In this document: positions 2,247 to 45,182 of the stretch, in pieces
How the letters are laid out: the number at the start of each line of letters is the position of its first letter
Numbering within the stretch: the first letter of the stretch is position 1
From: Marsupella aquatica
Lineage: Eukaryota; Plantae; Marchantiophyta
Assembly (NCBI GenBank): GCA_973895155.1
Contig: OZ316892.1
Location: 27,490,307-27,554,306 of the forward strand
DNA: 64,000 nt
Direction: 5' to 3'
Notes under the pieces: model-generated
The model's input: only the letters and a program-made list of their open reading frames with translations
Database searches by the model: none
Told to the model about the DNA's origin: nothing
Position numbers and translations under genes: made by a program

Positions 2247-5200
2247 ATGGAGACCATGACATTCGCTTCAGCAGTGGTAGTTATCTTCACCCCATTCCGT
2301 ACTTCTGCCCCGTTTGCTAGGTCGAGAAGAATTCTACAGGAGCCAAATTGATAATTTGTTCGGTGACCTTTTGAGTGCTCGTCGCTTTTTCAAATTCGCT
2401 GAACTGAATTGCGGCGCCTCCATTTCTTACCTTCCCCACTTTTGATTCGTTTGTCTAAATTAGGACCTACCGAAAGTTCAAGAAATGTCGTTGAATCATC
2501 ATGGCTTCTTCTTCTTTTGATTCGTAGTACTACAGCTGAGACGGGTCAGATGGGAATTGCTAAGTACAGAACGAATAATGCATCCTCCTTGCATGTGTTT
2601 TGTCCGAGAAGAACCATCAGGGTGAGGGAAGGTAGACATCCTCCTCGCATTATTCCAGGTCGGAATTTCTCGTAATGTGCGAGCTCTCTGACTATCGCAG
2701 GTTCCAGGTGTTGTGCCCATCAGCAGCAAAGGGACCCCTAAGGGCAGGTCATGCTGCGCTACCCCTCAGAATGTACTTGGTGGGGCTCTCCAAAACGTGA
2801 GAAGCGCCAGCTCTGGATTCCGGTGTGGCGAGCAGTCCTCTGCATGGAAACAGGCAGCCATAGTGTCGACTAAAGGCAAAAGTGGCAAAGCTCACGGTGG
2901 AGCACTTGTCAGCACCTGCGAATATGAGAAGATCTTGGTCGCCAACAGGGGAGAAATTGCAGTGCGTATTATCCGCACAGCTCATGAGATGGGCATTCCC
3001 TGCGTGGCAGTACACTCCACTATTGACCGACAGGCCCTTCACGTGCAACTTGCTGATGAAGCCGTCTGCATCGGGGAGGCTCCTAGTAGTCAGTCGTAAG
3101 CTCCATGATACTTGTACATGTCGATCTATATGGGCGGGATGGCTTTTGCAACCTTACTGTTGGTTGTTGATCTGCGGGGGTGGAAAGGTTCAGTTTCTTC
3201 TTTGCTTCATCAATCTAAACGCAAGCCATTACTGAATGGTACACTAGTCCGGAAAGTGACTTAAATTCCACCGGTTTTTCTGTTTTTTGCAGCTATTTGA
3301 ATATTCCAAACATCGTCTCGGCAGCCCTGAGCCGCCGTTGTACGATGCTGCACCCTGGATATGGTTTCCTTGCTGAGAATGCCACTTTTGTAGACATCTG
3401 CAGGGACCATAGTCTGAACTTCATTGGTCCAAATGTGAGTAACTTCGAGCCTCTAAAACCGTCCAAAAAGTGAATTTTCTCATCTGTCACTTTCTGGGCC
3501 TATACAGAAGGAATGCGTCTGTAGATAAGCCTGTCGGTTCACATCGGCAAGTTCTCGAGACTCACTCTCACTTGTCTGGCTTGGCAGCCCGACAGCATTC
3601 GCGTTATGGGTGACAAGGCTACAGCGCGAGAAACGATGAGGAAGGCCGGTGTGCCCACCGTTCCTGGCAGTGCAGGGCTCATAGAGGTATTTGCAATGTC
3701 TCTCATCATGCCTGGAATTATCTGGTGAAATGCGATACCATGAAGTGCCTACCAGTAACTTACTTTTTGTCATTAGCGATGACGGGATGATGTGCAGTAT
3801 GTAAACAAAGTTAGAATTCGTCAGCATTCACAAGACATTGCAAAAAAGTCGTGAAGCAGTGGATGATCACAACTGAAAATGTCAGTTCATGTCGGGAGCT
3901 GGGTAGATAAGTAGACAAACGGACGGACAAGATAGTTCTGTCACAGGCTGAAGTTGCCGACGCACATGAATACAATAGGGTTATTATTGTTGACCATTGA
4001 TAACTATTAATGTGCAGACAACCGAAGAAGCTATAAGAATTGCCCATGAAATTGGATTCCCCGTTATGATCAAGGTATAGTCTGAAATCCTGCGCATTGA
4101 ATCGTCATTAATAATTGCCTCGTAATCCTTGTGCTTCTAATTAAGTGAAGTCAATTTGTTACGTTATGGACTCTCCAGCAACAGTTGAATCATGCGATAC
4201 GAAAATGTGGCATGGTAGTTTGTGATGATTGGGAAGTTGGTTTTTTGGTTTCAGGCCACTGCTGGAGGAGGAGGGCGAGGTATGCGACTTGCAAAAGAAC
4301 CTGGGGAGTTTGTGAAACTACTACAGGTGAGCTACGCTCTTTCCAACTTGTAGTTTTTCAGGTGCAGCTCTTCAGCTTCGATAAGCAGAGTCCTAGAGAA
4401 ATCTGGTGATGGTTTTACAAAGATATTTGTGTCAAATTGTCACCAGATTAATCTGATCACTGTGACGTTACATAATTAAATGTTAATTTTATACATTTCA
4501 GTAATATGAAATCTGTTCGATTGATGAAATGATTTTATCAAGCTCTGTTCATATCGTTGTTTGTATCTCTGAAAGATGTAGGCAAAGTAATAATGGAGTG
4601 CTTCGTGAACTTTAATCTTGGTCCTTTCTTCGCGTTTCTCAATTGTTTCAATTTAAATAACTCAATCTGTGATCTTGTTGTAAATTTTCCAGCAAGCTCG
4701 AAGTGAAGCTGGAGCTGCTTTTGGCAATGATGGTGTGTACTTGGAGAGATGCATCATGAATCCAAGGCACATCGAGTTTCAGGTGTGCTCAACTTCGATA
4801 ACTTGCGCTGGCAAAATGTCTAGGTCTCTTAAAACTTTATATTTTACAATTAGTTTTTGTTCGATGAGATCGAATTCTAGCTTTGTTCCGTTCTCCTGTA
4901 TTTGATATGTCCCGCCATCAGGGTTTGTGTACCTTTCTAGTAACACCGTTGGCCAACCTTGCAGGTCCTTGCAGACAAGCATGGCAATGTGGTCCATCTT
5001 GGGGAACGTGACTGCAGTATCCAGGTCAGCTTTTGCATGGATGCTAAGAAGTGATGTATGACAGGCTATTGATGTGATTGTTGCACAGGTAAATTGTAGC
5101 AACAAGGTGAATTGGTCCAGGTGTAGGGTAAAGAGCACAAACTAAGGACAGCATTCAGCACTTGTGAAGTACATTATCGTCTTCCAGTGTATGACAGTCA

Positions 5201-7605
5201 GGACTGAATGTATTAGCCGTTTGTGCTGATATCCAGAGGAGGAACCAGAAACTTCTTGAAGAAGCTCCATCACCAGCTTTAACTCCTGAACTCCGTAAGG
5301 CCATGGGAGATGCTGCTGTGGCAGCGGCTGCATCAATTGGTTACGTCGGTGTTGGAACCATAGAGTTTCTGCTGGATGAGGATGGCAAATCTTTCTACTT
5401 CATGGAGATGAATACCCGTATTCAGGTGCTGATAGGAAGTCAAATCACTGGATAGAGGCAATATCTTGTGGTTAGGTGTTCCATTTTTCGGCAAGTTCGA
5501 TTTCTATGCACAACGTTGTCTTCAAAATGGAACCCGTACAGTTGGCTTATGTAAACATATTTCTTTGTTATATTAGAGATACTCCCATGGTATCCGCAGC
5601 GGGTCAGATAAAGCTACTGCCGTAAGATCTATCAGGTCCTTTCCTCCTTGTTTCTGGGAGGTCTTTAGTTTGTGATATGTGGGTGGATAACATGGACTCA
5701 ATATGATAGCAGAAATGCACGTACGAAGTAGTCAAGAAACTTGTAGAGACTTCATTTTCCACACAGCATGCTGGCCTCGGTTGCGCTGACAGCCCTGACT
5801 TGATCAATGGACAGGTGGAACACCCTGTAACGGAGATGATCACCTCTACTGATCTTATTGAGGAGCAGATCCGCGTTGCTTTGGGCGAGAAACTGCGCTT
5901 TAAACAGGTACAAGTTCTGTTTAATCAAAGTCCGAGCAGAGCAGTTCTTCTTTTAGTTCCATGATCGCAAGATTGACATTGTCTGACACCTGGAATGTAC
6001 TATTATCACAGGAGGAGATTGTTATTCGAGGGCATTCTATTGAATGCCGGATTAATGCTGAGGATGCCTTCCGAGGGTTCCGTCCTGGTCCAGGTGAGAT
6101 TTTGGTCCAGTGGGCTTCAGCATTCGCTTGTGATCTGAGTTTGTCAAGAGTTTGGCACTGATTAAGAATTCTACGATCTGCAGGTCGTATTACAGGATAC
6201 TTGCCCCCTGGAGGTCCATTTGTGAGGATGGACAGTCACATCTACACAGACTATGTTGTTCCTCCCAGCTATGACTCGCTTCTCGGCAAGGTATGGTAGG
6301 GCTGTTCTATCGAGGTGGTATCATTCTCTTTGGATGATATCAGTGACTAAACTGCAAGAATTTCTCTGCGCCTGGCACGGAAGTACCAACATGAGAAGAT
6401 ATCTTGGTGTTAGTGCTGACTGCGTCTAAACTCTCTGATCTGTGCTGTCACAGCTTATTGTTTGGGCACCTACAAGGGAGAGAGCCATTGTTCGAATGCA
6501 ACGGGCTCTCAATGATACAATAATAACTGGTCAGGGTTTTACTGAACTTCCAGTTTTGTGTCTTGAGTGGGCTCTGATGTAGAAATCCAAAGTCATCTGA
6601 TACTAATGGGTTTTGACCGCCAGTCGCCTAAAGCTTTACTGCCTGTGCGTACATTTTGCTCAGGAACGTCTTTTTAAAACCAGGAATGCTGCATGTTTTC
6701 TCTGTGCTATGTTGAAGTGTGCCAGAAGAGCTTACGAGCACCATCCAGTCTGCAAGTTTCCTCATCCTCATAAGTCACCTATTGCTGGCTGTTTGTTTTT
6801 GTCAGGCATTCCAACCACGATTGACTACCACAAGCTTCTGTTAGAAGTCCAGGTACATTCTTACCCGAAAGTAGTACAGCACTATCGAAACTTCAAAGGT
6901 TTGGGTGATTTTTGTGAACTGGGTCTCAGTAGAGCAAAGGGCAGTGTTTTGATAGTACAGACTTTCTTGCCATCAGGGAATAATTTGGAACCAATAAAGG
7001 GAGAGTAATATGGCGTCTAATAACATGGACCTCTGTGCTTGCAGGATTTCAAGGATGGGAAGGTGGACACTGCATTCATTCCCAAACATGAAGCCGAGCT
7101 TCAAGCTGTAAGCCTGCTACGCCATCTTTAATCTTTGTTTTGACCTCCTAGTATTGCAGGCAAAACCCTAGTTGCATGTCAGTTTTATGAAGGACTTCTG
7201 TTTCTGAATACCGTTTGAACCTCCATGATGTCTGGTCGTACGAGGTCCATGGATTAGAAAAATTGAAACGTGGGTAGTCTCTGGTAACACGGAGTAAATT
7301 GTGTGGCACTCAGAAGCCGAGATGATTATTACTAGTTACCCTAAGGGCTAGGCAATTCATTTTCTCAACTGTTAAGACGCGACAACCCAGACAATGTCGT
7401 TCATTTTAGGCTATTAAGTAATTTAATGTCCATGCGTTACTAGTGGGACTGCAGGTGTTGATTCTAAATGTAGATGATGTTGTCTGCGATGCTTCCCTCA
7501 TGTTTGACATCGACTGATGTGATTTGTTCTCTCCTTGTGCAGCCTTCTGCAGATAACCCACTTCCGAGTCTTATTAATAGAGAGAAAGTAGCTGCAGTTG
7601 TGTAA
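2247..7605 (+). CDS. CAC2: Plastid acetyl-CoA carboxylase biotin carboxylase subunit (heteromeric ACCase), 16 exons, about 554 aa including transit peptide
   Basis: Manually spliced GT-AG exons: 2247-2276, 2701-3095, 3293-3434, 3588-3686, 4018-4074, 4255-4326, 4693-4782, 4965-5024, 5237-5425, 5815-5907, 6012-6093, 6184-6290, 6454-6529, 6806-6852, 7045-7107, 7543-7605. They sum to 1665 nt in frame. Motifs: [100 protein letters not shown]. The N-terminus is Ser/Gly-rich and transit-peptide-like. Exon 1 ([10 protein letters not shown]) is the least certain. Confidence 0.96.
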
Positions 7606-18082: not shown

Positions 18083-20169
18083 ATGTCCTCGACAATGTAC
18101 ACGGTGGTGCTCCAAGCGGCGAGCAGCCATGGGAACGAGCACATGGTGCAGCTACGGAGAGCGGCGAGCGAGTCGGCGGCCACCACGACGGGCATCAACG
18201 TCTCGGCGGAGTCCAATCGCACGACCAATGCCAACAACGGGACGGTAGATAGTCACTTCACACAGTCGAAGAGCATGTCGACAGTGCCGACAGAGAAGTC
18301 GACAGGTCCGAGCTTGAGAGGGATTGTGATGGAGTACTACGGCCCAGGCCAGCGGCTGCGCGAGATCTATCTTGGGAGCCGAGAAGGGGAGCGATTCGCC
18401 GTCCCGATCACGCTGGCGGTGCAGCTCTCTCCCCTGCTGAGAGAGTTCGTCGAGTCCGTCATCAGCGAGTCTTCTCGGGGCCGCTTCAATGCCCGAGACA
18501 AGGCGAAGCTGACGATTGATGTGCCGTGCTCGACTGACGCGCTGAAGACTATGGTGGATTTCGTGTCGGCCAAGCTGGAGCTGGACTTGAAGCTGTCCGA
18601 GGAAGGAGTGAGGATGACCGAGGAGCAGAAGAAAGAGCACTGGAGGGATTATATCTACTCCCGCATCTCGTGGAGAATGGATCTTGACGACTTTGCCGAC
18701 GATATTGTTCAGGTACTTCACATGAGTTTGGTCGATTCCTTCACATTCGGTTGCGTCTGGTTCGTTTGTTCTAGTAAGGAAGGCCAAATGTCTAACTTCG
18801 GATAGACGTGAACGGGTCTTAGTTGCTTGCAAGCGTTAATTAAGTTTCCTTCCTTCACGGATTCCGTTTGATTGCAAAACTAGTCCACTTCGAAAGTCAG
18901 TTGGAAATGACAGTCCCTCGTGTCCAATGGATTGTGGAGTCAACCAATTCGATGGTCATTTAACCTCCCTACCCAAATTACCACGTCAACTATGGACGTA
19001 GGTATAAAGGTCCATCAGGCAAATGAAGAGCTGGTGTCTTGAATCCATACGGACATATGTGCATCTCAGTTTTGAGCTAATAGATTTTGGAGGATTGTTT
19101 ATTTTATCCTGCCCAGAGGATAAGTCAATTTTAATGGTAATCTGAAATGTGATGCGGATCATCAATGGATGGCAGAAGGTAACCTCATTTGGTGGGCGTT
19201 CCTGCTTCCTGCTTCATGTTGATGAGTTGTCTGGTTACATAGAATATGTCAATCAAGCCCCGTTTGCTCTATCGAAGAATTTTAAGCAAGAGAAGAAGAA
19301 TTGATGCTTTGAATTGAGACAGGCGTATGTGAACGGGTTTAGATTGCACTTAAAACTATCTGTCAAGTAGCCAAAGTGTCCAATCGTGCAGAACTGGATT
19401 ACCTGCACTCAACTGGAGTCGTGGACCCTGCTCCTTCAGGAATGTTCAGGCAGAAGGTCGGTAGATGTTTCTAATTGGACGGAGATATTGTGGGTCTTGT
19501 GGGAGAAATTCTGCCAAGTTTCCTCATTACTCCCGTCGATTACAGAAAAATAATTCTGTGTCGAGGTCAATCCTTAAGAAATGCCGATTTCATCCTGTTT
19601 GGTTCGCCTGGTCTGAGTGGAGCAGTGTCCAGGCAGCGAAAGACGATTAGATACTTCGATTTAGACAGCAGATGTGGGGTGTTTGGTAGCTTTTGAAAGG
19701 CTCAATTCGTTTTCTTTCATGCTTTACCATCGAGGCCCGAAATCTATCAAGTTTAAATGGTCATTTGACAACATTCCTACCTCAAATTACATCGAGTCAA
19801 TCATGACTGCCGGGGACATTGGTTCGGCACTATTTGAAACTTCTTGGCTAACTTTTGAAACCATTGTTGGGGGAATTTTGAACTGTCGTCTGTTTCCTCT
19901 CTCAGGCGATGATGAGATATGCTATGCAGTACTCGTCATTCTATAGTCTTGATCTTGGCAAGGCACCAGATTGTATGTGATTGATTAGCCAGAGAATTGA
20001 AACAGTCGAGAGTCACTCATGAGCGATGCATTTGAGTTGCGCTTATGTTCTACATTCCTGTGGCTTCGCTTCGCTTTTAATCATCTCGCTATATGTGCAG
20101 GTTGCGGAATATCTGAGCATGAAAAGTCTGTACGACCTCATGAAGTGCTGTTTCCGCCTGAGATTGTGA
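18083..20169 (+). CDS. SKP1-like BTB/POZ-fold protein with a long S/T-rich N-terminal extension and truncated C-terminus, 2 exons, about 232 aa
   Basis: Exon 1 18083-18712 (GTT CAG|gtac) plus exon 2 20101-20169 (tgtgcag|GTT GCG...TGA), phase 0. Segments IYLGSREGERFAVPITLAVQLSPLLREFVES, TIDVPCSTDALKTMVDFV, KEHWRDYI and DDIVQVAEYLSMKSLYDLMKCCF align by eye with SKP1 segments LKSSDGE.FEV..A..SQTI, PLPNV.S.IL.KVIEYC, K.WD.DF and LFELILAANYLNIK.LLDLTC. Confidence 0.75.
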
Positions 20170-27988: not shown

Positions 27989-29530
27989 TTATCCTCTCTC
28001 CAATGCTTCTAATCGATTGATCAAAATTTCGAAGGTACTTCGCCTGTCAACCATGCTGATTCGCACGAACGAGGGCTCAGCTCCGAAGTAAATGCCGCCC
28101 CGCGCCCGAATTCCGTGAAGTCTCAGAAATTTCTCGCAATCCTCTTCCTCATTGCATCGAAGCCACGCAAATGCTGGAGTTGTACTACGCATCTGCTTGA
28201 AGAAAGTACAATATCCTGAGTCGAATTCGGTTGATAAGCTAAACCGCACGCCTGATTCCAACGCAGACACGAGTCTTCGCCACCTGTATGCCATCTCCGA
28301 CGCCCCGAAATGAAACAATCCTTGCTTCTCCGCATGCACCTCCAGAGCTTCCGACATTGTCCTCTCGTCGTCAACTATGCTGTCATCTCCGTGCCCCTTG
28401 TAAGCCTTCGTGACGGATCTCAAAATCTGAGTAACCCGAATTTGAGCATCCTTCGACACCCCGATCGAGTTCAGCTCAATGAATTTGGCCATCTTCTGCG
28501 CCACCGCCAAGTCCTTCACTATGGCCCATCCGATTCTGGTTCCAGCATGCCCGGTATTCTTCGAAACGGTGAAGAGCATCAGGTCATCGTCGGCAGGAGC
28601 TACGATGGGCACGTAGTGTGGCCAGTAATACGCAAGATCATGGACGAGAGCACCGCCGGTCCCGTTCACAACAGCGTGTCGAATTTCACCTGTCGGATTG
28701 CTTGGTGTGGTGACCAGCTCGATGTACTCATCTTCTTCCGCCGTCTGCTCGAACTTGGCAGCATCGCCGGCCCACCTGTATAGCCCAGACCGCAGGTAAT
28801 CTGCTTGCATCGGGTACGCTGAGTAATAGGGAGCCAAGGAGACGACACTCGTGGGTGTAGAGCGGCTCGGAGATGCAAGAGCGTACAATGCAGCTTGAAG
28901 CAGTTGTGTCGATCCCACACCGATGATTATATGCCGACCTTCGGTGACAGCATTCCCGACGACGTCATGCAACCTCCGGATCACCTGATCGAGCTGGGTC
29001 TGCACGAAGAAGAACTGCTTACTATTGGCGTAGTAGCTCAGCTGCTGCCACCCGAGAATTTCCGTCGTAGAGGAGTCTCCGTTGTGCAGCCAATACTTCT
29101 CGAACATGGTCGGATCGCCTTGAAAAACGTCGACAACGCAGCCGGTATCGCTCGAGGAGCAATCTCTGCCAGTGAAGCATGCGTGACATCGACAATCGCC
29201 GAGTCCAGTTTCGTAATCCAATTCGAAAATGCCGTGCCCTGAGCACGGGTCACTCGCTCCAAGCGGCGACGGCGGCGGCGCTGCAGTGATAACTGGAGAG
29301 ATTGCGCTCTTCATACGTTCCACAGAAACGTTGAAGCTCAAGCCTTCCGCAGCTCTAGTGCTCGACGACCATCCCCGGTACCCGACCGCAATAACAAGCA
29401 GGAGAACGCTCACCGCCGCAGACGATATCCAGCGATCTTGCGACGACACTGTCTTACTCGGAACCAAAGGAGCCGCCGCTGAACCTCCATTTCCGTTCAA
29501 TTGCTTCCCATCAGCGCTCAGCACCCCCAT
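27989..29530 (-). CDS. TAR: Tryptophan aminotransferase, TAA1/TAR family (PLP-dependent, alliinase superfamily), intronless, 513 aa, with N-terminal TM segment and EGF-like domain
   Basis: Uninterrupted ORF. Hydrophobic WISSAAVSVLLLVIAVGY, then EGF-like CSGHG...CRCHACFTGRDCS...C. Catalytic-domain motifs GDPTMFEKYW, LHDVVGNA, GVGSTQLLQAALYAL, APYYSAY, IELVTTPSNPTG, HDLAYYWPHY, PLP-lysine motif FTVSKNTGHAGTRIGWA, IELNSIGVSKDAQ, PAFAWL and VRISMV. Confidence 0.96.
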   Translation of the reverse strand: MGVLSADGKQLNGNGGSAAAPLVPSKTVSSQDRWISSAAVSVLLLVIAVGYRGWSSSTRAAEGLSFNVSVERMKSAISPVITAAPPPSPLGASDPCSGHGIFELDYETGLGDCRCHACFTGRDCSSSDTGCVVDVFQGDPTMFEKYWLHNGDSSTTEILGWQQLSYYANSKQFFFVQTQLDQVIRRLHDVVGNAVTEGRHIIIGVGSTQLLQAALYALASPSRSTPTSVVSLAPYYSAYPMQADYLRSGLYRWAGDAAKFEQTAEEDEYIELVTTPSNPTGEIRHAVVNGTGGALVHDLAYYWPHYVPIVAPADDDLMLFTVSKNTGHAGTRIGWAIVKDLAVAQKMAKFIELNSIGVSKDAQIRVTQILRSVTKAYKGHGDDSIVDDERTMSEALEVHAEKQGLFHFGASEMAYRWRRLVSALESGVRFSLSTEFDSGYCTFFKQMRSTTPAFAWLRCNEEEDCEKFLRLHGIRARGGIYFGAEPSFVRISMVDRRSTFEILINRLEALERG

Positions 29531-31475
29531 TTTGACTGAAAGGGAGTTCGTCGCTACCTAACTTGGTCAATGTGCGATTGACCCCCCCAACTCCAGCAAG
29601 CTACAGCTCAATTCCTCAATTCCACATACGAAAGCTTGCTCCAACTGTCGCACGACAATTTCCCTCGGGGAGCTACCACCCGATTCGGACCACAGTTCCT
29701 CAATTCTTGCCGCTCCAGCTGAGGACCTTGCTCGAACTTTAACGAGATCCCCGACCCACTGTAGACTTATATTGACAAGCTACGCATAGGCAGGACGAGC
29801 TGGAGTCTGGCCCTGGCAGAGAATGTGTTGGAGCTCACTGTCTCATGAGAGAATGAGCATTATTTCTCTGCCACAGGCGGCAGCAGAGAGAATGTATTGG
29901 GCTCTTCGAGAAAACTACATACACTAAAAAAGATCGTAGGAGAAAGAATGTAGGCGATTCGGCGGCCTTTGGCCCATGAAGAATGATGAAAGAGAGCACC
30001 AGAGTCCAGAGGGTAGAGGATGGAGCTTAGGCCTTAATAGGGCCTGTCTAGCGACAGTAATGAGTGCTGTAGTAGTAGTGGAAGCATGGAGCATTTCTCT
30101 GCCATTGGCAGAAGAGAAGCCATATCTATTTAATAATAAGCCCTTGCAGACTATATACAGACCTCATTAGGAGGTTGCCCCATGCACCTGCCCAGAATCA
30201 TTGTATGGGCAAGACCAGGTTGGCAGAGCACCAAACTTCCCATTTCATACCAAGAGTATTTTACCATGGTTATCCGGCATTTTTGTGTTGTGCACGGACA
30301 TTATCCGACCTAGGCAGTGCAACATTGTCGGACCAATGATAATGTGGCCGCAACTAGGTAGTGCAACGCATGGGCATTAGGCTATCCAACACATCACCTC
30401 ACATTTGTATTTAAATATTTTATGCATTATTTACATCTTCATTGAGGTGATTGACTTCAACTCTTTGTTTATTTTTGGCACACCTGATAACATGGCAACA
30501 ACAATAACGTGGTTGCAACAACAATCGTGCAGTGCACAAGCTTTAAGCTATGTACATAAGAAATCCTTGCAGACTATGTACAGATCTTAGGAGGTTGCCC
30601 CATGCACCTGCCCAGAATCATTGTATGGGCAAGACCAGGTTGGCAGAGCACTAAACTTTCCATTTCATACCAAGAGTATTTTACCATGGTTATCCGACAT
30701 TTTTGTGTCATGCACGGACCGAGGCACGGACATTATCGGACCAATGATAACATGGCCGCAACTAGGCAGTGCAACATTGTCGGACCAATGATAATATGGC
30801 TGCAACTAGGTAGTGCAACGCATGGGCATTACACTATCCAACACATCACCTCAGATTTGTATTTAAATATTTTATGAATTATGTCTCCATCGAGGTGATT
30901 GACTTCTATTCTTTGTTTATTTTTGGCACACCCAATAAGTAACATGGCAACAACAATAACCTGGTTGCAACAACAGTCACGCAATGCACAAGCTTTAAGC
31001 CATGTACATAAGAAAACCTTGCAGACTATGTACAGATCTTAGGAGGTTGCCCCATGCACCTGCCCAGAATCATTGTATGGGCAAGTCCAGGTTGAGCACC
31101 AAACTTCCCATTTCATACCAAAGAGATTTACCCTGGTTATCTGACATTTTTGTGTAGTGCACGAACATTGTCGGATCAATGATAACATGGCCACAACTAG
31201 GTAGTGCAACATTGCCGGACCAATAATAATATGGCTGCAACTAGGTAGTGCAACATTGTCGGACCAATGATAATATGGCCGCAACTAGGTAGTGCAACAC
31301 ATGGGCAGTACAGGCTATCCAACACATCACCTCACATTTGTATTTAAATATTTTATGCATTATTTACATCTTCATTGAGGTGATTGACTTCTACTCTTTG
31401 TTTAATTTTGGCACACCCGATAACATGGCAACAATGATAACGTGTGGTTGCAAAGACAATTGTGCAATGCACGAG

Positions 31476-31588
31476 TTTTGTTTGTTTTTAATTAAGGAGA
31501 AATCTGTGAAACCCCACAAAAAGGGAATAGTCAGAGAGGCATGTTTGTGTGGTAGCTCACTTGAGTGGAGACTAATAGGTCTTGGGTC
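31476..31588 (-). mobile_element. Short retro-insertion (SINE or truncated LINE) with ~11 bp target-site duplication
   Basis: 113 bp not present in the other repeat units. It starts with ttttgtttgttttt (A-rich tail on the minus strand) and is flanked by caatgcacgag (31465-31475) and caatgcacaag (31589-31599). Confidence 0.6.
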
Positions 31589-32122
31589 CAATGCACAAGC
31601 TTTACGCTATGTAAGTAAGAAACCCTTGCAGACTATATGCAGATCTTAGGAGATTGCCCCATGCACCTTAGAGTCAGGGCGGGAGTCAGGGTAAAGAGTC
31701 TTCACTCTAGACAATAGCCCTAAAAATTAGTTTTCCATTCCGCTTTGTTTGTTCAATATTTCTATTGAGATAATTGATTTGTACTATTTATCTAGTTTTT
31801 GTACACTAAACCTGAGCACCCCAATAGGATGGTCCCAACTATAGTATAGTTGCAACGACAAAATAATGTACAACACACAAGCACTGGGCTATGTATTTAA
31901 TAAAGCCTTGCAGACTATATATAGATTGTAGGAGGGCGCCCCATGCATCTGCGTAGAATCATTCGCCGGGCTGGTCCAGGTTACTTAACAAAACACCAAA
32001 CTTCCTGTTTCATATCAAGAGTATTCAGATTGTTTTCTAAGATTTTCTGTTGTGCACAGATATTGTTGGACCAATGACAACATGGTTAAATTATGTAGTG
32101 CAACACACAGGCATTAGGCTAT

Positions 32123-32371
32123 TTTTTTTCAAGAAGGGTGCAAGGCCAAAAATCCACATGAGGGGGCAAAAACCACCCAAGCAAAGACAAAGAGGCCCAA
32201 CGCCAAGGGCCAAGCGGCCAACAAAAAAACACACTAGTCATACCACTCAACCCTAAAGAGCCATGTCATAATGGCCCCCAAAGCAAACCAATCTGGTTCC
32301 ATAGTGTTCCTCTTTAGTCTATCCTGCCACCTGCTGTTCTGCTGCCTACTGAGACTATCTAAGATTGTCAG
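32123..32371 (-). mobile_element. 5'-truncated LINE 3' end with poly(A) tail and 17 bp TSD
   Basis: Flanked by the exact repeat cacaggcattaggctat (32106-32122 and 32372-32388), with a T-run at the left edge. The minus strand reads an open frame (LTILDSLSRQQNSRWQDRLKR...VEWYD*), then a G/T-rich 3' UTR and an A tail. Confidence 0.8.
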
Positions 32372-32739
32372 CACAGGCATTAGGCTATCCAACACATGGC
32401 CTCACATTCGTATATATTTAAGTGTTTTACATAAGATGTTGTTATTGAGGTGATTTGACTTCTATTCTTTGTCTATTTTATGCAAACCCGATAACATACA
32501 ATCATGGTGGCAACAATAGCATGGTTGCAACAACAATCGTGCAATGCATGGCCATTATTTAGGCTATGTATTTATACAAATCATTGCAGACAATATACAT
32601 ATCATAGGAGGCATGCATATGGGGAGAATCATTGCTTGGGCTATGGTAGTCCAGGTTAGCATAGCACCAAACTTCCCACCTTCATTCCAAAAGTCCTCAC
32701 TTGGGTTTGCCAACCTGCCCACTTGAAAAATGTGTAGGG

Positions 32740-33300
32740 CTTATACAATGGAGCTGACCAAAAGGGTTATAACAGCAAGTCTCAAACCTCCCAACTGGTG
32801 TCAACCTTAACCACTAGGTTAAGGTTATGAACAGTCACAAAAAAATTTCAGAATCATTAACTTTTTGCTGTAAAGAATGATCATATCCCATAACCAAATG
32901 CTACTGCACAAGCTAGTGAAAAAAACTAAAGTAATCTTTTACAAAACCTTGTGGGAAAAGTGACAGCCATTTATCTATGGCCAAATGCCATCACTTGCAA
33001 CAATGAAGCTTTGAGATGCCCTATTAGAGCATTTCCACCAGTGCTCCTTTTCACCCACTAAAACGCAGGGTGAACCTGATGGAGAAAACAACTGGCAATT
33101 TTCCTCCCCACCAGTAACCATATCTCCATACATTTAGATCAAGTCAGACATTTCAAATCGACAATGTGAACCACCAACTTTAGCAAAAAAGGCAGTCTCC
33201 AACCTAGCCCGTTAATATTCAGACCAGCCTCCATTCTCATCAGTGGTAGAAGCAAATTAATGTAATGTCCATTTGTAAAGTACATTTCAACTTACACATA
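32740..33300 (-). mobile_element. Possible hAT transposase relic
   Basis: Minus-strand fragments IVASDGIW and VHNLNLVVK resemble hAT (S/T)DGW and C..H.LNL..K motifs. Very degenerate. Confidence 0.3.
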
Positions 33301-35379
33301 ATTTGTGGGAATTAATCTGTGGACCCCCCATGTTCATCAAAGGAATGTGTGTGTGATGAAATGAAATTAATTTTCAGCAAGGTGGTAACCAATGGTTTTG
33401 AGTCTCCCGGTGGTCTTGGTGTGTGCTTGTACGAAAGAGAACGCTTGAAAGATAGAGGAGATCAATCTGGTTGAGATGATCTCTTTGGTTTATCATATGG
33501 AAGGTTGAATGTGGAGGAATTGAGTATTTTGAAATTTTTGCTTACACATTGGAGAAATCATGTTTCAACCAATCCTGATTAATTATTTGTGAGTTACGTT
33601 GAGCATTACTATCACAAGACAGACCGGAGGACAACACTCAATTGTTGCCAAAAGAGAGCTTGTCATTTCGGTGGGAAGAACGCGCAAAAGAGACAAGCCA
33701 TCACTTCACATGAAGGTTTTGTAGCTTTTTTATTTAAGAAAGCTATGGTGTGAGGGGGAGACCAGTGATTTAATTGTTTCTTCAAAATAGAGGCTGCAAT
33801 TGGCATCAACCTGTGTTTAGAGACTTGAGCTTCAATTGAAGTTTGGAGGGACGCAAACAATTCAAGCCAGGAAGCAAGCGTTGCGGACAAGCGATGGCGA
33901 CATAATCAATTTGCACCTGCTAAGTTTGTGACAGTGACAAGATTGTGACATCTCTTAATTGAGAAAGGGTTTTCAATGAGCTCCTCAGATTGACAAATTT
34001 TGTCAACTTCAAAATGAGTTTTTGAATTTCTCTGCTTTCCAATGAGTGTGACAATAAGAAATTTTGATCATGAGTTCATGAATTCTTTTAACTTTCTAAC
34101 ATTGAGTCCGACATTGACAAATTTCATGTCAAATTTTGTCACGGTACTAAAGAGATCATGAGGTTTCAATCTCTCTAGCTTTCTAATGTGTGACATTGAG
34201 AGTATTCAATCAAGATTAGAGAGATCATTAGTATCCAAATTTCTCTAGCTTTCCAATAAACCTAACATCGATAGATTTTGTCAAGTACTAAGGAGATGAT
34301 GAGTTTCTAATTTTACTCTAGCTTTCCAATGAGTGTGATATTGGGAGATTTTATAAAGTACTAAGGAGATTGATTATTTAATTTTACAATGCGGAGCCAA
34401 AGGGATTCTAACCATGTCCATTTCTATCGATTGGTTTTTTCAAACTTGCAAATAATTTAAAAATACAACCATTTTGATGTAAAACATTGAGATATCATTG
34501 ACAAACATAAGAATGGTAACTTTATTTTGCTAAATGACATCTCTTCCTTTGTATTCTGGTTCTCTTATGCTTAATATTTACGGCATGACGCCCCAAAAAT
34601 TACGTTGCTTTTGCCACAAACATGAATGTGTGTTTTGTTATTGTCAAAAATAGGATCTGTCTTGTTTGTGGCTGGGCTGATGTGATGCAACCTTGTGGTA
34701 GGGAATTTGCAAGGGACCTCTCATGGGGGTCCGTAATGAAGGACTGGTTAGTTTGGAGGCTTTTCAGTGAGGTTTGTGGACTACGGATAGCATTGGCGTG
34801 GCCTCAATGCCCATACATGCACCTCTATTTCTATTGTTGGTGGCATTTCACCATGATAGCAAATAGTAAACAGATTTACTAGTAGGTCCAATAAAAAATG
34901 TCTTGTTACTACTTTGATTGTTACCAACAACATTGACAATCCAAAACTGTGTCATAATTAGAAGTCTGATTTTACCTAATAATTAAAAACATCTCATTTT
35001 GTGCTAGCGCTAGTAATAAATGTTGGCTAGTAAACAAAAAATATGTTAAATGTTTTTCAACAAAATAATTACAATCAAATCAAAATATTTACCACCCATT
35101 TTGTTGTTACAAGTAACTATTTGCATTTACTGTTTGCTGTTTACTATGAAAGTGGTTATACCCTGGTTGGAGAGTTTCAGCTGGCGGGGTTTCAGCCCCA
35201 ATTTTAGCCACCAAAATGATGAGATCCTCATAATGGAAATGGAAACCCGAATGGAGATTCTTATACTGGAAACTTAAGCCCCATTATTTATAATGCAAAA
35301 ACTAATGTCCACCCATTCACAGGCCCATTCACTCTAGAGCTATCAGATTTTTGATCACGCAATGGGTTTTCTGGTTACT

Positions 35380-35381
<2 letters not shown>

Positions 35382-35443
<62 letters not shown>
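35382..35443. repeat. (AT)n microsatellite
   Basis: About 31 uninterrupted AT units. Confidence 0.98.
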
Positions 35444-35446
<3 letters not shown>

Positions 35447-37332
35447 TGGGAGACAACAAACTGCTATCCAGAGCAATGCCAAACCAGGCTGAGTTGACCC
35501 TCATTTAGGGTCAGGTTCAGGTGAGTTAGGTTAGTGACTTGGGCAACAAGGTACTAAATGTCCAAACGGAGGCTAAAACTGCCAAATGGTGTTTTGAAGG
35601 CAAATTGCCCTAAGCCACAGGTAATTCTGCAAAACAAAATAGTTTTATGTTGCAATGCAAGAGAATTGGAGAAACATGTACCTGGAGTATGTGCAGGTGG
35701 AGAAGGACCCTGATTGACGTTAGATCAAAGAGTGCTTAGTAGGATGCGCAATGTGCGGCCATAATGGGGAGATGGTAGGGAGGTTAGGTTTGTCAACTGA
35801 GGGGGGGGGGAGGGGATTCTGTCCCTAGGCTCTCACAACATCTAGACTAATGGAATCTAGCTATGACCAGACTATCTCCCTTGTTATTTGTCTCTATGCA
35901 TAAAAATTTCCCTCCATAGCTGTTATAATGATAGTAATCAATGAAACTAGTTCAAAATTAATTTAAATTACCTGGCGTGTTTGCATACTCTCCAAATTAC
36001 ATCAGCTGGGGGCTCAGGGTTTATGACTGCAAAGAGCTATTTCATGCAGCCAGGAGAACCAGCTTCAAGTTGCGTAGAAGTCTCCCAAGCCTCAAGCAAA
36101 GGGTTTAAAGTTTCAATGTAAAAAGAATGTGGGCAAGGGGAAGCAAAAGAGACGTGGTGACTACTCAATTGGTTCTGCAGATATCAAAGGGACTAATCAA
36201 CATCCATGACAATAATTCATGCAACCAAAAAATTTAAAGCATCATGGCAGGGAATGCAAAAGCGAATGCCACTCCCTCCTACCCCTTCCCAACAGGTACC
36301 AATTAACACCAGTTAGTTTTGGAGATACTGAGTGTGTTGTCATGCGCATATACATCGCTACACAAATACATCGCATACAGTCCCACATCCAAACATAAGC
36401 ACAAACAAACATAAGAGAATAGGCTACAAGTAGGACTCAGGTCCACACAAGTCCAAAACCCACTGAAATCGAACAGCGATTGACTCCAAGTGACAATACA
36501 ATATCAATCCCGCCCAATCCAATCACACACGTATGCGGCCACGTATGTCAAGCCCAATGCACCTTGCACTCAGGAATCGACGTTACATAGAAGGAGCTCT
36601 CAGCCACCATAGCCCGGGCCATAGCCAAATCCGCTCTCCTCTCCAAGGCTCAACAACGAAAGATAACCTTTTGACTCCTCACAATGGGAGAACTACTCTC
36701 CACACAAACCCAAACGTACTGAACCGACAGCACACATACAAAACGCACAAACCTAGATAACACGATGTACTACAATGCCACCAAGAATTGTGTGACAGTG
36801 TCAATCCAAGGAGTCTGGACACTCCAACAGTAGACTTTTCTGGTTGACAATGTTGGGGAGATGCATGGAGGGGAGGAAGACAAGACCAAGTATTCGAGGT
36901 GAATTCTTCATCAACACATCCCTCAGTCTGTTGGCGACTTATGGACATTACCATCCGAACCTGCAACTGACATGAAGTGAAGAAGTAGGTGGAATTGATG
37001 GCACTACAAGCGCGACTACATTCAGGGATCATCAAAAAACAACATTCATTCTTCCTCAACTTTGCGAAATAGCTCAATGTTGCCACTCCTATTTAATGAG
37101 CTCTCTGATCCAATGTTGGTGTTGCCCATTGCAGCCTCCAGGTCCAGGTTCTCCATATCCATCCCAGTACCTATAGATGTAAACTGGGGCCAAATCAGGC
37201 AGGGCCTCGGGCAATACCCACTGTCTTTTTTGTTGTCTTATAATCAAATAAGAGACAGAGCAAGGATTTTCAGGTCTGCTTGAAAGAACAAGAACTGCAT
37301 ATTCTTGCTATTATTTAATTAATCCAAACAGG

Positions 37333-37690
37333 ACATGGGTTGAAGATTGTAGCAAAGGCTTAGTGTAGGCAACAGCAATGGCAGCAGGGCAATGGTGTAC
37401 TAGGGCTATGGCAGGACAGCTCATGGTTGAAGATTGCAGCAAAGGCTCAGTGTAGGCAACAACTTCATGGCAGCCACAATGGGGACACACCAATGATGTA
37501 GGGCTATGGCACTCCAAATTGTGATGGTATGATAACGGCCATTTTATCAAATCCATTGATACAACATCCACTAAGAGTTATCAACAGAAGAGGGCTATGG
37601 CACTCCAAATTGTGATGGTATGCCAATTGCCATTTTATCAAATATATCCATTGGTACAACATCCGCTAAGAGAGTAATCAACAAAAGAGC
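37333..37690. repeat. Two adjacent tandem duplications (~90 bp period each)
   Basis: catgg.ttgaagattg.agcaaaggct.agtgtaggcaac occurs twice, and agggctatggcactccaaattgtgatggtatg...ccattttatcaaat...acaacatcc.ctaagag occurs twice. Confidence 0.8.
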
Positions 37691-40600
37691 AACATGTAAA
37701 TACTCAAGGTGATTTAGTGCAACTTGAAGCAGGCCCATACTACTGTAGAGTCTGTAAACTTGACCGGAGTTTGGTGAGTTAATCCATGTCAAGGGGGTGA
37801 AATTATGTACAATTAATATGCATTTTTGGGGTGTAACTGCAGTGGTCACCCATGTTTTCACCCAGTTCTTTTACATATAACTATGTAATAATGTAAATAT
37901 TGACTATCTATTGGATTTTTTCAAGATTATTTGTAATCTAGGGTGGTTTGAACTGATTTCTGTTCAGGAGGGAAATTATCCTTCACGGGTTGTAGGACTG
38001 AGCTTCATTTGACCATGCTTGGATATCCACTTTTATATTCAACTGTGCATTTCATGGGGGTCTTTTAATTCTGGACTTAGAGAACCTGAAATGAGATCCA
38101 TGGATAGGGTTCCAAGTTGGTATCTATTCCAAAAATTAAAAGCTCAGACAAGGTTCTATGGGATTGCTCCCTCAAGGGCGGGGAGGGGTCACTATACGGA
38201 GGGCCATACATCACATACGACAGTTTGGGTTATTTATGATATTCTATAATGACTTTAAATAACATTCTATGACACCAATCATGTGATAACACATATGCAT
38301 TTTGCAATTAATAAACCCTATACTTCCACTAACAACTTAATAAGCATTTCCCAAAATGATTACAATGACCTCATATTTTGTAAAATGCTGTGCCACTTCT
38401 ATGGAAGTAAACCTCTCCCCCCCCCCCCCACAAAGACTGCACCCCTCTAATTGATAGTTCGAATACAAAATTGGATACCTGCAGACTAAACCTTAAGTGT
38501 TTGGGTTTCAGTTAACCTGCTGTGTTTAGAGACTATAGTTCAATCAGGTAACTCTCACTTAGCAGTAAGGGTTTTAACTCCAGTTTAAATTTTTAGTCTG
38601 ACTAGCAATATCTAACTCAAATTGTGGTTTGAATCCGAAAGTGGATACAACATGTGCAGTTTTAATCCGGTTTCTAGAATCATGTCTTAATAATTGGTGG
38701 TTTTGCAATTTTTGTGCTTGACTCAATTTGGCTCCTGGCTAGATAGGTTAGGTCATATGCCATTTTCTGTGTTTTGTTTTAGATATGCACTCTTCGAAAT
38801 CAATAGTGAAAGTTGTTTTGTAATCAAAATTTTCAAATATTAATCAGACATTTTTGGTTTGAAAAAACAACATTCAAATTTGGAATTCAATGTTGGATAA
38901 TCAAATTGAAACACACTTCTCCTTTCATTTGTCCTTGTGTTATACTTGAACACTCAGTGAGTAATATAAATTATATGAACAACTAACTAATGTCTCACAG
39001 GAGTCAATGGACAGAGGGCTCTAGAGGAACAATAGTTCCCTCCTTCCCTCTCTCGATGCTATATGTGAAATAACCCTTGTATATCCAAACATGTTGAGAG
39101 TGTGAAGGTTACTCCGCAGCACATGTGGCAAATGTAAGCATTAAAATGAACAAAACAAGTCCCTTTTCCCTTGGCTAAGCCAGATCTAAAATTGATCAGT
39201 CCAGCAAATAAATAAACTATAGTTTACAATACACAGAAATTCCTCTTTCCTTCTTTGTATCTATGGGGCTCAAGAGAGCCCCAAGGAGAGCACAATTCTC
39301 TCCTGAATGCCCTCGTAACTCCCCCCCTGAGCCCTTCCATGTTCACCCATTATACTTCACCCAGGATGTGACTTATAAAAAATTATGGAATTAAAAACAG
39401 GAAAGACTTAGTTTGCAAGTTTTGACTTTGTATTTTTGAGGGGATTTGTTTTATAGAATAGGCACCTTTATTTGAGGAGTGAATTATGCAATTATGCAAT
39501 GACCCATCGATCTAGGCATATGTAACCCACAGTTCACACGATTGCAGAAAGTCAACACTTACACAAAGTCAAATACCACTGCAGACAATTTTATCAACAA
39601 ATCTTGCATGGCCTAAAATCCTGGCATTTTAACTTCTTCTTGTTGAGTTCTTTTGTTACACACGTCTATTGCACAACCTTAATTTCAGGCCAGGATTTTA
39701 CTTTTGTTTGTTTCTTTCCAAAACTCACTCAGTTTTATTGTGAGGGAGCCTTCTGGCGAGCCTTCTGGATACTGGAATTTGGGCCATGTAAGGTCCCATA
39801 TTACTTTGACTAAAAACCCTGGTTTTTGGGGGCACTGCATCCCACAATTCCCTCTAATTAGGAAGTTAATTCTAATCCTAGTTCCCTTCTCTACTTTTCT
39901 CTTTGTAGTTTTCAGGGCACTAGAGGAGAAGAATGCACACTCAACATTTGATGCACCTCATAATGAAGATTCTCCTCTACTTTCATTTACTAAAATTAGC
40001 CAATACAAAAATCTTTTAGGCCTTTAAGTGTATTAAGGCCCCGTTACCATAGCACTATAGGCAATAATAGCCCCTCAACACTCAAATAAAAATCTCTCAG
40101 TTTTGGGGGCATTATAGCACACTATGCATTGTAAACAGGATTTTAATTACTATATACTGAACAGTTTTTTTGCTGGACATTAAAATTGTGGAGATTAATC
40201 TGGCATGTAGGTGGTGTCACAAGCTTTGTGAAAGAGGTGACTTAATAATTATGGTTTTGTGAAGCCTAGGCTTGGGGTTTTAATTCCTACAATGTCCCTG
40301 GGAAAGTAACAGTTTTAGTCCTTAGTATCCGGTAGCATGTATACAGATGAGTGGTATCCAAGGCTATAGAGTGCTCTTCAATTTGAACTACTTAATTGCT
40401 TCATTACCCATTCCATGAATGTAAGTAGAGGTGAGGACAAGAAAACATCTTGCGAAAAAAGGGTTCTTTGCTATTTCCCATAATTCATCTTTGCCCTCGT
40501 CCATGTTTTTCTTTTGCCCCATCCATGTTTTTTGTCTGCACCCTCACTTTCAGTATGCCCTTAGTTAGAGGCTTCCCTCTAGAGAGTAAGACCAGGAAGT

Positions 40601-42465
40601 ACTAGCTTCTGAATGGGATTTATATCCTTAATATAGATAAGACCACTTTCTTTATGGAAATGAACAAGTCAGTTGTACAACAAAGGTTTTGTTACCCTAA
40701 ATTGATGCTCAAACTATCCTGTCACTAGTAGCTCTATTGTCCAAATTGCAAGGCTTGCCGTCATGCCTTTACTTTGAGAGACCTTGCTAAAATTGGGGAC
40801 TGAATTGTACTCAATGGCTCAGAATTGAACTAGAAATGGTTTCAAATAGCAATGATAAGCTAAGTTTGGGTACATTGCTGCAAAGAGCAAATACTCAGAC
40901 ATTGAGAGTGTTTGTAGGTGATGATGATACCTCTGACTAGTTTGAATAATTGTAGATACTTTTATTGGTGTGTAGCTGCCCCTTTACAGCACCCAGCTTG
41001 GAAAAATAATTACAAGTAGATTGAAGAACATTGAACTAAAGGGTTCCAAGGTTCTTCTATTGAATTCAAGAAAGAATCCCACATACTTAGCTACTCTACG
41101 CCCAGATTTAGTCCCTGCAAGGCCAGGTTAGAGATGGCCCTTGTTTGGTAATCTTGATAATTATACATCCACTAAGTGACTTCCAATTTAACATCCAAAT
41201 GGTCTGATCTCAGTGGTACTGAAGATTTGAACTGTCATGGCCCAGGTTGAATTTCAACAACAGTTTGGATATGATTGTCACCAGCTTTAGGATGTGCTTG
41301 GAGATACTGAATCCTGGCAACCCGGAGATTCTCCTTGCCAACCTGTCACTTTCCCTTCAGACAAGCCAGTTTGACAAATTGGAAAATAAATGTTTTTATG
41401 ATAGAGAAGGGATATCAAGCTTGAATGGGATCTCCATCCCAAACATTTTACTCAGAAACAATTTCTCAGCTTGCATGATATCTATGAAAGCATATACACA
41501 TTTTATGTAGTATATGGTTCTTGATTCAGAATGTTTGACTTTCTACAATGAAATAAGATCCCACCCAACATGATTTTAAGGTTTTCTTCTCTTTGATAGT
41601 GTGGCAAAGTCACCTTGTGTGAAGGATAATTTCTCCATATTACTTTCTGACCATCACCTCTCCCTAGATTCAAGGAAAGAAGTTAGATTTTGGCTAGTGG
41701 GGTCTGGCTAAGTGGAAAACTGGCTAATGGACGACAAAAAACCCAGCAAGTTTTGCCAGAAATGATGAATACTTTTCAGAGAGGTTACTTCTTAGAAAGG
41801 TTACTTTTTAGTGATGAATAGTGGTTAGAGAGGCGACTTAAGAAAAAGCTGCTCCTGTCTCAGCTCAAAGACTGGTTTAAATGGAGGTCTCATTACACTT
41901 TATGGCTTTGTGTTTTAGAGGCTTCACTGGCTCGAGAACCAAGAGAATGAGAGAAGGTGGGGGCTCAGAGATTAAAGTCTAGGCCCACGCTGAAACGCGG
42001 TGACAGCAAGAGAGGAGCGAAGTTCACCAAAAACGTCTCGAAGAGAAGTATGATTATAAGCAAGTTCTTCGATCTCCTGCTCATTGGATACGGTGTTACG
42101 GTGATCGGGGGGTTCTCTCTACGTGTACGTTTCTTCAATCATAAGCTCATTGGGTTATGGTGATCACGGAGCTCGCGAAGGTCGCAACTAAGACGAGCAA
42201 TGATGACGTACCCGCTGCATTCGCAGTCGCACACCAGCCATATAGGTCAGCGTTTCAGGACGTACGATGCTCCCAATACTAAAGTGGCGGCCCGTGGAGT
42301 GAATCAGTAGTAGAATGCAGCATAGAAGACAGTGCATCCGGAAGCTCCGAATTACTGATTCTTCTTCTGGAATTAAAACGCTTCTCAGGACCCACAAGAT
42401 ACAGGCATTTTGACACCTGATCGAGGGCCTTTCTGTCCGTCAACTTCTCAACCTTCTTCTCCTCG

Positions 42466-42548
42466 ATCGATCCTCATATTAGCAGCACACTTCAGCTCAA
42501 CCTTCTTCTTCTCGATCGATCCTCTTATTAGCAGCACACTTCAGCTCA
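42466..42548. repeat. Duplicated ~33 bp motif in the YUC 5' leader
   Basis: tcgatcctc.tattagcagcacacttcagctca occurs twice, 50 bp apart. Confidence 0.8.
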
Positions 42549-42681
42549 CTGGCTATTTCCTCGCGGAACCCAGCTGGATTTTCTGTCTAACCGAGTCAGG
42601 TTCTGAAGCCTGGACAGGATATTGTGGTATCAATCAGTTGTTAGTAGCGTTATTCCGTTAAAACCGTGGTTGCTGTCAACG

Positions 42682-44192
42682 ATGCCGCCACACTCGTCTG
42701 AGTCGTGGGGCAAGGAAGAGAGGGATCCGGTTTGGATTGAAGGAGCCATCATAGTTGGAGCTGGTCCGTCGGGTATGGCTGCCGCTGCATGTCTTCAGGC
42801 ACAGGGAGTTCCTAGCATTCTTCTCGAGAAAGCTGAATGTATAGGATCTCTGTGGAAGCACAGGACGTATGACCGGCTTCATCTCCACATTCCAAAGCAA
42901 TTTTGTGAGCTCCCGCATTTTCCTTTCCCTGACTCATATCCCACGTATCCAACTAGACAGCAGTTTCTGGACTATCTCGAGGGATACGCGACGCATTTCA
43001 ATATTAATCCTCATTTCAACGAATGCGTTCAACATGCGAGCTACGACGACGTGGCGGGTATTTGGCGGGTGAAAACCATCACACCTACAGGAAAGTCTTC
43101 GCTTTTCAGCTCCGAAGAGTACGCCTCCAGATGGCTGATCGTCGCTTCAGGGGAGAATGCCGAGATGGTGGTGCCAAAGCTCCCAGGGATGAGACAGTAC
43201 CACGGAGACTTCCTGCATTCTAGCGACTACAAGAATGGAGCTGAATATGAGGGGCGAGAGGTATTGGTTGTTGGATGCGGAAATTCTGGCATGGAGATTG
43301 CCCTAGATTTGGCGAACTTCAACGCCAAGCCTTCCCTTGTCGTTCGAGGACCCGTAAGTAGTGTACTTCGCTGACATTTCGCAATGGTTTTTGGAACTAG
43401 TTTACTAGATAATTTCTCTTCCGTAATCCCGAATCCTTGAAGTTGTCACTCCTGGCGTCGTAACTGACGCCCATTCCTTTCTGCTGCAGGTTCATGTATT
43501 GCCTCGGGAGATTTTGGGCCGCTCCACTTTGTCGGTTGCATTGAAATCGATGAGAACATTCCCTATCTGGTTCACAGACTGGATGTTGGTATTCTACACC
43601 TGGTTGACGCTCGGTAACTTATCCAACTATGGATTGACGAGGCCGAGGCTAGGGCCCATGGAACTGAAAGGCAAGGTTGGAAAAACTCCCGTCCTTGACG
43701 TCGGGACTGTCGCAAAAATTAAGAGCGGACACATAAAGGTGGTTCCTAGAATTGAGTCTTTGACAACGACCGGTGTCCAGTTTGAAGATGGGCATACGAA
43801 GAAATTTGACGCAGTGATCCTGGCTACAGGATACAGGAGCAATGTGCCCAGATGGCTCAAGGTAATTTCCTATCTCTCATTCCAAGGTTCACGTATTGCT
43901 GTTAGTGACGTATGTGTCAAATTATGTGCGACCCGCAGACTTTATTGATGATTGAATGCTGATGGACTCCGATTTGCCTTTGCCATACATACAGGACGAG
44001 GAAAATCTATTTGCTCGTGATGGTTTTCCCAAGCCATCTTCCCCACAGTCTTGGAAAGGTGAAAGAGGTCTGTATGCGGTTGGAATGGGACGCAAAGGAC
44101 TTCTGGGCGCTTCTTCCGATGCCAAACAATTAGCCCAAGATATCAGTCAAGCATACCACGAGACGAAAGCGGCAGTGACGAAGAAGATCTGA
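42682..44192 (+). CDS. YUC: YUCCA flavin-containing monooxygenase (indole-3-pyruvate monooxygenase), 3 exons, 413 aa
   Basis: Exons 42682-43353, 43490-43861 and 43995-44192, all phase 0 with GT-AG introns. FAD motif IIVGAGPSG, TYDRLHLHIPKQFCELP, WLIVASGEN, FMO signature FLHSSDYKNG, NADPH motif VLVVGCGNSGMEIALDL, VHVLPREILG, GKTPVLDVG, ILATGYRSNV and WKGERGLYAVG. Confidence 0.97.
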
Positions 44193-45065: not shown

Positions 45066-45182
45066 TGCTGTGCTGTTGCGACCTAGAGCCGGATATGATT
45101 TTGGGAGGGAAACGACTGTAGATCTCCCATGATTGAAGTGAGAGGCTGCTGTGCTGTTGCGGTCTAGAGCCGGATATAATTT
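45066..45182. repeat. Direct repeat, 2 x ~35 bp
   Basis: gctgtgctgttgcg..ctagagccggatat.attt occurs twice. Confidence 0.75.

Follow-up and report, generated by a model that had tools for sequence, protein, structure and literature searches.

A head-to-head TAA and YUCCA gene pair in the liverwort Marsupella aquatica, with an intron-less TAA copy and a likely shared linkage in Calypogeia

The 64,000-nt stretch of the Marsupella aquatica genome analysed here (contig OZ316892.1; hereafter the window) contains, head to head and pointing outward, two genes whose predicted products are the consecutive enzymes of the main auxin route, a TAA-clade tryptophan aminotransferase and a YUCCA (YUC) protein. 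In this pathway TAA transaminates tryptophan to indole-3-pyruvate (IPyA) and YUC converts the latter to indole-3-acetic acid (IAA) by oxidative decarboxylation (PMC12659883, PMC10015382). The pair is real, inherited and lineage-restricted. Its TAA gene is intron-less, a new observation beyond an earlier interpretation made from the letters alone (the sequence-only reading). The linkage is likely to be common to the window and the leafy liverwort Calypogeia fissa. The preferred account, to which we give about an even chance, is that the pair formed once in a leafy-liverwort ancestor from an mRNA-derived TAA copy beside a duplicated YUC, and owes its persistence mostly to ordinary gene-order conservation.

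The product of the TAA gene matches Pfam Alliinase_C (E 2e-135), with a weak EGF_alliinase match below its own cutoff. Arabidopsis TAA1 (3bwn) is its top PDB match (E 2e-95), followed by alliinases (3e-86). Residues K324, R332 and T208 align with the functional residues K217 (the catalytic lysine), R225 and T101 of TAA1; the Alliinase_C pyridoxal phosphate (PLP) domain with its catalytic lysine, as in the TAA/TAR1/TAR2 clade, is present. Family membership and these residues point to a PLP-dependent conversion of tryptophan to IPyA as the predicted activity. The N-terminal part of the protein includes a moderately hydrophobic stretch, with a mean of 1.77 in its best 19-residue window (from residue 35), which is a possible membrane anchor. 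The protein is 59% identical to MpTAA and lies in a clade with Marchantia and Riccia TAA (support 100/99), itself within a TAA clade of 29 sequences (100/100) and apart from three TAR4-like sequences on the TAR3/4-alliinase side. At least 13 differences separate it from its counterpart in a close relative (organism B, about 98% alike); among those listed, 7 are synonymous and 6 non-synonymous, too few to rate selection.

The YUC gene encodes 413 residues in three exons, separated by two GT-AG introns of phase 0; an alternative acceptor 6 nt downstream would give 411 residues. A Pfam match to FMO-like (flavin-containing monooxygenase; E 6e-25) is accompanied by GAGPSG at residue 26, ASGEN at 155, HSSDYKNG at 179, GCGNSG at 198 and ATGY at 336, which correspond to the YUCCA patterns (FAD, NADPH, FMO-identifying and ATG motifs); one strict FMO pattern has no match. 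The protein is 74% identical to MpYUC2 and groups with it and other true YUCs, falling in a liverwort clade (100/98) of a tree built without a sister-YUC or other FMO outgroup. Its predicted activity, judged from family and conserved residues, is the FAD/NADPH-dependent conversion of IPyA to IAA. The middle YUC intron, whose canonical position corresponds to 43738|43739 (after IK), is apparently missing; one aligned piece in run X6 (one of eight runs whose contigs were matched to the window) stops at 43741, and the Marchantia paleacea model P0127 carries an insertion at that site. The sequence-only reading had described an intact TAA1/TAR-family gene on the minus strand (ATG at 29530) and an intact YUCCA gene on the plus strand (ATG at 42682), and both are borne out, the first by the open frame, Pfam and PDB match and the second by the three-exon model, motifs and FMO-like domain.

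A diverged YUC contig also aligns with exon 3 (44030-44051), at a depth of 59 in run X1, where the window copy has 17; its depth is 463 in X2 and 437 in X3, and roughly equal to that of the window copy in X5. Depth is not copy number; at least one further YUC exists, perhaps as several near-identical copies or a repeat-borne fragment. A 49-nt tandem duplication at 42447-42548, about 130-230 nt 5' of the YUC ATG, likely belongs to the 5' untranslated region.

The two start codons are separated by 13,151 nt. None of 115 open reading frames (ORFs) in this spacer (stop to stop, at least 45 residues; 115 of 119 scanned, four in an AT run being omitted) passes the Pfam cutoff, the lone sub-threshold match being to Myb (E 0.016), and Rfam has no match inside it. 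The claim of a shared spacer of about 13.1 kb without a recognisable protein gene therefore stands, with the proviso that a short or multi-exon orphan gene could escape a scan of this kind. Such a distance is ordinary in this gene-sparse window, where neighbouring recognisable genes lie about 3-18 kb apart. If 18,000-30,000 genes, 2 TAA and 2-5 YUC copies are assumed, the chance of any TAA directly adjoining any YUC is roughly 3e-4 to 1e-3. The adjacency would thus be rare for a pair named beforehand, but this pair was chosen afterwards among many pathways and genomes, which leaves room for chance.

The closest relatives of both proteins are found in C. fissa, those of Marchantia and Riccia coming after. 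In C. fissa both TAA and YUC come in two types, which are 73% alike for TAA and 80% alike for YUC, and every type is represented by a near-identical pair (96-99%). One type of each appears to be linked, together with an orthologue of the SKP1/POZ-like gene next to the window TAA and in the same order: POZ CAM6113925, TAA CAM6113929 and YUC CAM6113931 in copy 1 (contig of 8,945,542 nt), and POZ CAM6118083, TAA CAM6118087 and YUC CAM6118091 in copy 2 (TAA and YUC sharing a 7,769,663-nt contig). TAA and YUC are thus 2 and 4 accession numbers apart in the two near-identical copies, which do not represent independent events. Linkage is read here from contigs of equal size and from accession numbers assumed to follow position, which speak to order and not to orientation or distance. 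The remaining TAA and YUC pairs are spread over four different contigs. Because the C. fissa copies neighbour each other too, the linkage has been inherited and misassembly is an improbable cause of it. Adjacency restricted to this one genome, which the sequence-only reading had named as a sign of chance, is not what was found, since C. fissa appears to have the linkage as well.

Phylogeny places these copies in time. The window and C. fissa proteins form a clade without Marchantia and Riccia in both the TAA tree (100/100) and the YUC tree (100/99), and because these clades exclude the Marchantiales, both duplications postdate the divergence from Marchantia and Riccia. Support for uniting the window YUC with the linked C. 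fissa YUCs is 97/94. Derived sites are common with the linked copies more often than with the unlinked ones (8 versus 4 for TAA, 6 versus 2 for YUC).

Two neighbouring genes served as controls of synteny. The SKP1/POZ-like gene is the nearest recognisable protein gene beyond TAA, and its C. fissa orthologue (88% identical) is found four accessions ahead of the linked TAA in both copies. This kept order confirms positional orthology and argues against misassembly. The second control, a plastid biotin carboxylase gene, has its C. fissa counterparts (CAM6092352, CAM6086714) on other contigs, so that one of the two control junctions is kept (POZ-TAA) and the other is not (biotin carboxylase-POZ). 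Since the latter is broken, gene order does decay at the depth that separates the window from C. fissa. On the other hand, the POZ-TAA junction is also kept and the TAA-YUC neighbourhood is therefore not special; because an unrelated neighbour is kept alike, conservation of the pair shows inheritance and not selection. With this neighbour kept and the second C. fissa TAA and YUC paralogues unlinked, the evidence for a cluster maintained by selection is weak.

The structure of the TAA gene bears on its origin. Among 80 plant TAA loci that were fetched, the match is split into exons in 62, with breaks near residues 137, 237, 334 and 452; 11 others have one partial match, and 7 short contigs of 1.6-3.2 kb, without a break, are presumed to be transcripts. 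Exact splice sites, taken from three loci, map to 29121|29120, 28820|28819, 28530|28529 and 28174|28173 of the window. The window TAA is uninterrupted at all of them and has none of the four conserved introns, which belong to the typical structure of the gene and are not needed for function. All parental introns are missing, as in a retrogene. Elsewhere introns persist: in the Marchantia TAA cluster, the match of one ORF covers precisely residues 453-511, the last exon, and follows unrelated leading residues; because this match starts exactly at residue 453, Marchantia TAA keeps intron 4. In run X4, from organism B, a second, diverged TAA is represented by aligned pieces ending at 28176 and 28819, which fit the CAG acceptor of intron 4 and the GT donor of intron 2 (a loose end in X6 served to calibrate the arithmetic of these ends). 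An end at 28819 is also present in runs X6 and X8. The diverged second TAA of this close relative thus appears to keep introns, and the simplest reading would be an intron-bearing paralogue and a processed copy beside YUC.

It is proposed that an mRNA-derived TAA copy came to sit upstream of a duplicated YUC in the common ancestor with Calypogeia. Ordinary conservation of gene order would be the main upkeep of the pair, as the control neighbour suggests, and the processed copy may have borrowed some regulatory sequence from the YUC side. Several observations weigh against this proposal. A third end of the X4 paralogue (28504) misses intron site 3 by 25 nt; a different plant in the sample may be the source of this piece. 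By eye, no poly-A tract is seen downstream of TAA, an absence expected for an old event. Because the genes of the block are scattered in Marchantia, retroposition and intron loss in place are indistinguishable. The TAA tree by itself is an open fork that does not separate orthology to linked copies from orthology to unlinked ones, and by raw identity the unlinked C. fissa copies are slightly closer (79-80% versus 77% for TAA; 84% versus 81% for YUC). Finally, 1 and 3 accessions sit between TAA and YUC in C. fissa, and the biotin carboxylase-POZ junction is broken, two controls being too few for a baseline.

The pair could also be a selected, co-regulated auxin module in which the TAA copy uses enhancers of the spacer, both enzymes come on in the same cells, such as apical cells or the sporophyte, and the supply of IPyA is matched to its use. 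This is the main rival, though less probable than the preferred account. The orientation is divergent with no gene between, the two enzymes are predicted to catalyse consecutive steps, and the linkage apparently persists in C. fissa, whose proteins are 77-81% identical. Moreover, retrocopies need new regulatory regions, and borrowing from a head-to-head neighbour is known, with a figure of 11% in mammals (PMC5470649). In Marchantia, auxin down-regulates MpTAA and MpYUC2 together (PMC10015169) and the expression of MpTAA and MpYUC1 is correlated (Pearson 0.91; PMC6174852). However, TAA and YUC2 lie on different chromosomes there, so that linkage is not required for co-regulation. A repeat-rich spacer of 13 kb is not a bidirectional promoter, and none of seven motifs counted in the spacer and in the rest of the window is clearly enriched in the spacer; an excess of TGTCGG in the spacer falls mostly inside its repeat array. 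The equal conservation of the unrelated POZ gene also speaks against such a module. A fuller version, in which a retroposed TAA captured head to head with the YUC duplicate is held there by shared enhancers, as a dedicated, co-switched auxin source beside the unlinked pair, is less likely than not.

Alternatively, DNA-level rearrangement may have brought an ordinary TAA beside YUC by chance, with introns lost in place through recombination with cDNA, while the second TAA and YUC would stem from a larger duplication and have since lost their linkage. The duplications of TAA and YUC took place on one lineage, later than the split from the Marchantiales, which fits one block duplication, and the apparent lack of the middle YUC intron indicates that intron loss occurs at this locus. 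Yet all four TAA introns are gone, the most 5' one included, which is the usual mark of a processed copy, and the unlinked C. fissa TAA and YUC copies are on no common contig. This alternative is regarded as unlikely.

The sequence-only reading had proposed a candidate hormone-biosynthesis gene cluster, either co-regulated or a relic of ancestral linkage. Gene identities and adjacency hold; the relic, in the sense of a linkage dating from the assembly of the pathway in early land plants, is unsupported, and we consider it very improbable. Adjacency itself is all that favours it, apart from the fact that gene order between the window and Marchantia is fully scrambled (all four genes of the block are on different chromosomes or contigs there), which makes absence from Marchantia weak evidence. 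TAA and YUC are of different origins as families (PMC12659883, PMC10015382). In Marchantia polymorpha they lie on chromosomes 5 (TAA, Mp5g14320) and 8 (YUC2, Mp8g08780) (PMC10015169), and the copies retrieved are unlinked in M. paleacea (TAA against two YUCs), Riccia fluitans and Diphasiastrum; in Riccia sorocarpa they share one contig, 1,540 locus tags apart. None of the 80 other plant TAA loci has a YUC, a weak argument given flanks of at most 10 kb (shorter than the 13-kb spacer), with 9.5 kb upstream in only 18 of the 80. The linked TAA is, besides, the derived, intron-less copy, and the duplicate clades contain the window and Calypogeia only. Least probable of all, and close to negligible, is a misassembly joining unlinked regions across the repeat-rich spacer: among the matches listed no contig of the eight runs spans the spacer and the X1 pieces break at repeats, but the same three-gene accession order occurs in both copies of an independent genome, and eight X1 pieces among those matches overlap continuously from 37593 to 46400, with 0 differences from the window.

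The coordinates of the genes and of the main spacer features are collected in Table 1. Smaller high-copy repeats are present in the spacer bins 31148-31811, 36460-37123 and 37788-38451, as judged from X1 depth.

Table 1. Genes, control genes and spacer features, in positions of the window.
Feature	Position	Strand	Basis or remark
Plastid acetyl-CoA carboxylase biotin carboxylase gene (control)	2701..7599	+	first exon probably further upstream; non-syntenic in C. fissa
SKP1/POZ-like gene (control)	18083..20166	+	exons about 18083-18715 and 20095-20166; named from the label of the Marchantia homologue
TAA-clade tryptophan aminotransferase gene (predicted)	27989..29530	-	single open frame, one coding exon, ATG at 29530, 513 residues
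Divergent spacer, no Pfam or Rfam gene	29531..42681	.	ORF scan and Rfam
Degenerate array, direct repeats of about 450 nt with 44-nt inner unit	30133..32678	.	starts about 600 nt upstream of the TAA ATG
High-copy dispersed repeat	33140..35131	.	contig depths sum to about 100-300 times the unique level, run X1
(AT)31 microsatellite	35382..35443	.	repeat analysis
YUCCA exon 1 (FAD motif GAGPSG, NADPH motif GCGNSG)	42682..43353	+	ATG at 42682; motifs and Pfam
YUCCA exon 2 (ATGY motif)	43490..43861	+	motif and Pfam
YUCCA exon 3, including stop codon	43995..44192	+	gene model; 81-84% full-length identity to C. fissa YUCs

No Pfam match above cutoff was obtained in 75 ORFs to the right of YUC and 87 to the left of TAA. 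An open frame of 163 residues on the minus strand (45507-45995), 1.3 kb past the YUC stop, has no Pfam match; it bears a weak likeness (0.91, of low recognition) to bacterial glyoxalase-like proteins and is possibly a small gene. A single-exon ORF of 192 residues on the plus strand (62565-63143), with an ATG start and hydrophobic stretches, belongs to no Pfam family and looks like a real orphan gene. A tRNA gene lies at 22687-22758 (minus strand), between the POZ gene and TAA, and a tandem array at 48069-48347 consists of 5.1 copies of a 55-nt unit with 94% matches. A search of 1.84 billion representatives with exon 1 of the SKP1/POZ-like gene found only two relatives at E 0.001, which are from Calypogeia and Marchantia, and the gene is apparently liverwort-restricted.

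No report of a TAA-YUC linkage was found in the titles, abstract beginnings and passages of the literature consulted, whose coverage of bryophyte genomes is possibly incomplete; the available parts of PMC12659883, PMC6174852, PMC10015382, PMC10015169, PMC9778849, PMC8253395, PMC5470649 and bioRxiv 2024.12.03.626703 do not mention it. Novelty is thus provisional. Plant gene clusters are known mainly for specialised metabolites; with a conserved pair of TAA and YUC, the main auxin route would join them. If a captured, retroposed TAA does share enhancers with YUC, this would be a core-hormone biosynthetic cluster assembled by retroposition. Calypogeia, with what appears to be one linked and one unlinked TAA and YUC set, offers a natural experiment, within one plant, on whether clustering leads to co-regulation. 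A neutral arrangement would still place parallel duplications of TAA and YUC on the leafy-liverwort line, and would document a processed copy for a gene of a core hormone.

Among known systems, the closest is that of Marchantia, where MpTAA and MpYUC2 belong to the same two enzyme families and to common liverwort clades with the window proteins. There the genes are unlinked, TAA keeps at least intron 4 where the window gene has none, and no parallel TAA duplicate pair of the Calypogeia kind is seen among the copies retrieved. Database entries for Marchantia P0003 and P0245 name a TAA copy on the Y chromosome, another relocation of a liverwort TAA. The iaaM/iaaH (tms1/tms2) genes of Agrobacterium T-DNA are likewise an adjacent divergent pair providing a complete two-step route from tryptophan to IAA. 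They differ in their bacterial origin, indole-3-acetamide route, unrelated enzymes and short intergenic region, so that the likeness is one of analogy only.

The momilactone clusters of rice and of the moss Calohypnum exemplify plant biosynthetic gene clusters, for which at least three pathway genes are a common working definition. The window has two, the pathway being of two steps, and no further auxin gene was recognised among the ORFs scanned. As in such clusters, its non-homologous genes of one pathway adjoin each other; plant clusters were assembled late by duplication and relocation and not inherited from microbes (PMC8253395). Compared with the clusters of specialised metabolism, the pair is limited to two genes and leads to a core hormone, and conservation extends equally to an unrelated neighbour. 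Retrogenes expressed from a head-to-head neighbour (PMC5470649) offer a further parallel to the window TAA, in that an intron-less copy is divergent from an existing gene while an apparently intron-bearing paralogue is found elsewhere. Unlike in those cases, the neighbour of the window TAA is the next enzyme of the pathway and lies 13 kb away, and no hallmarks of insertion are seen.

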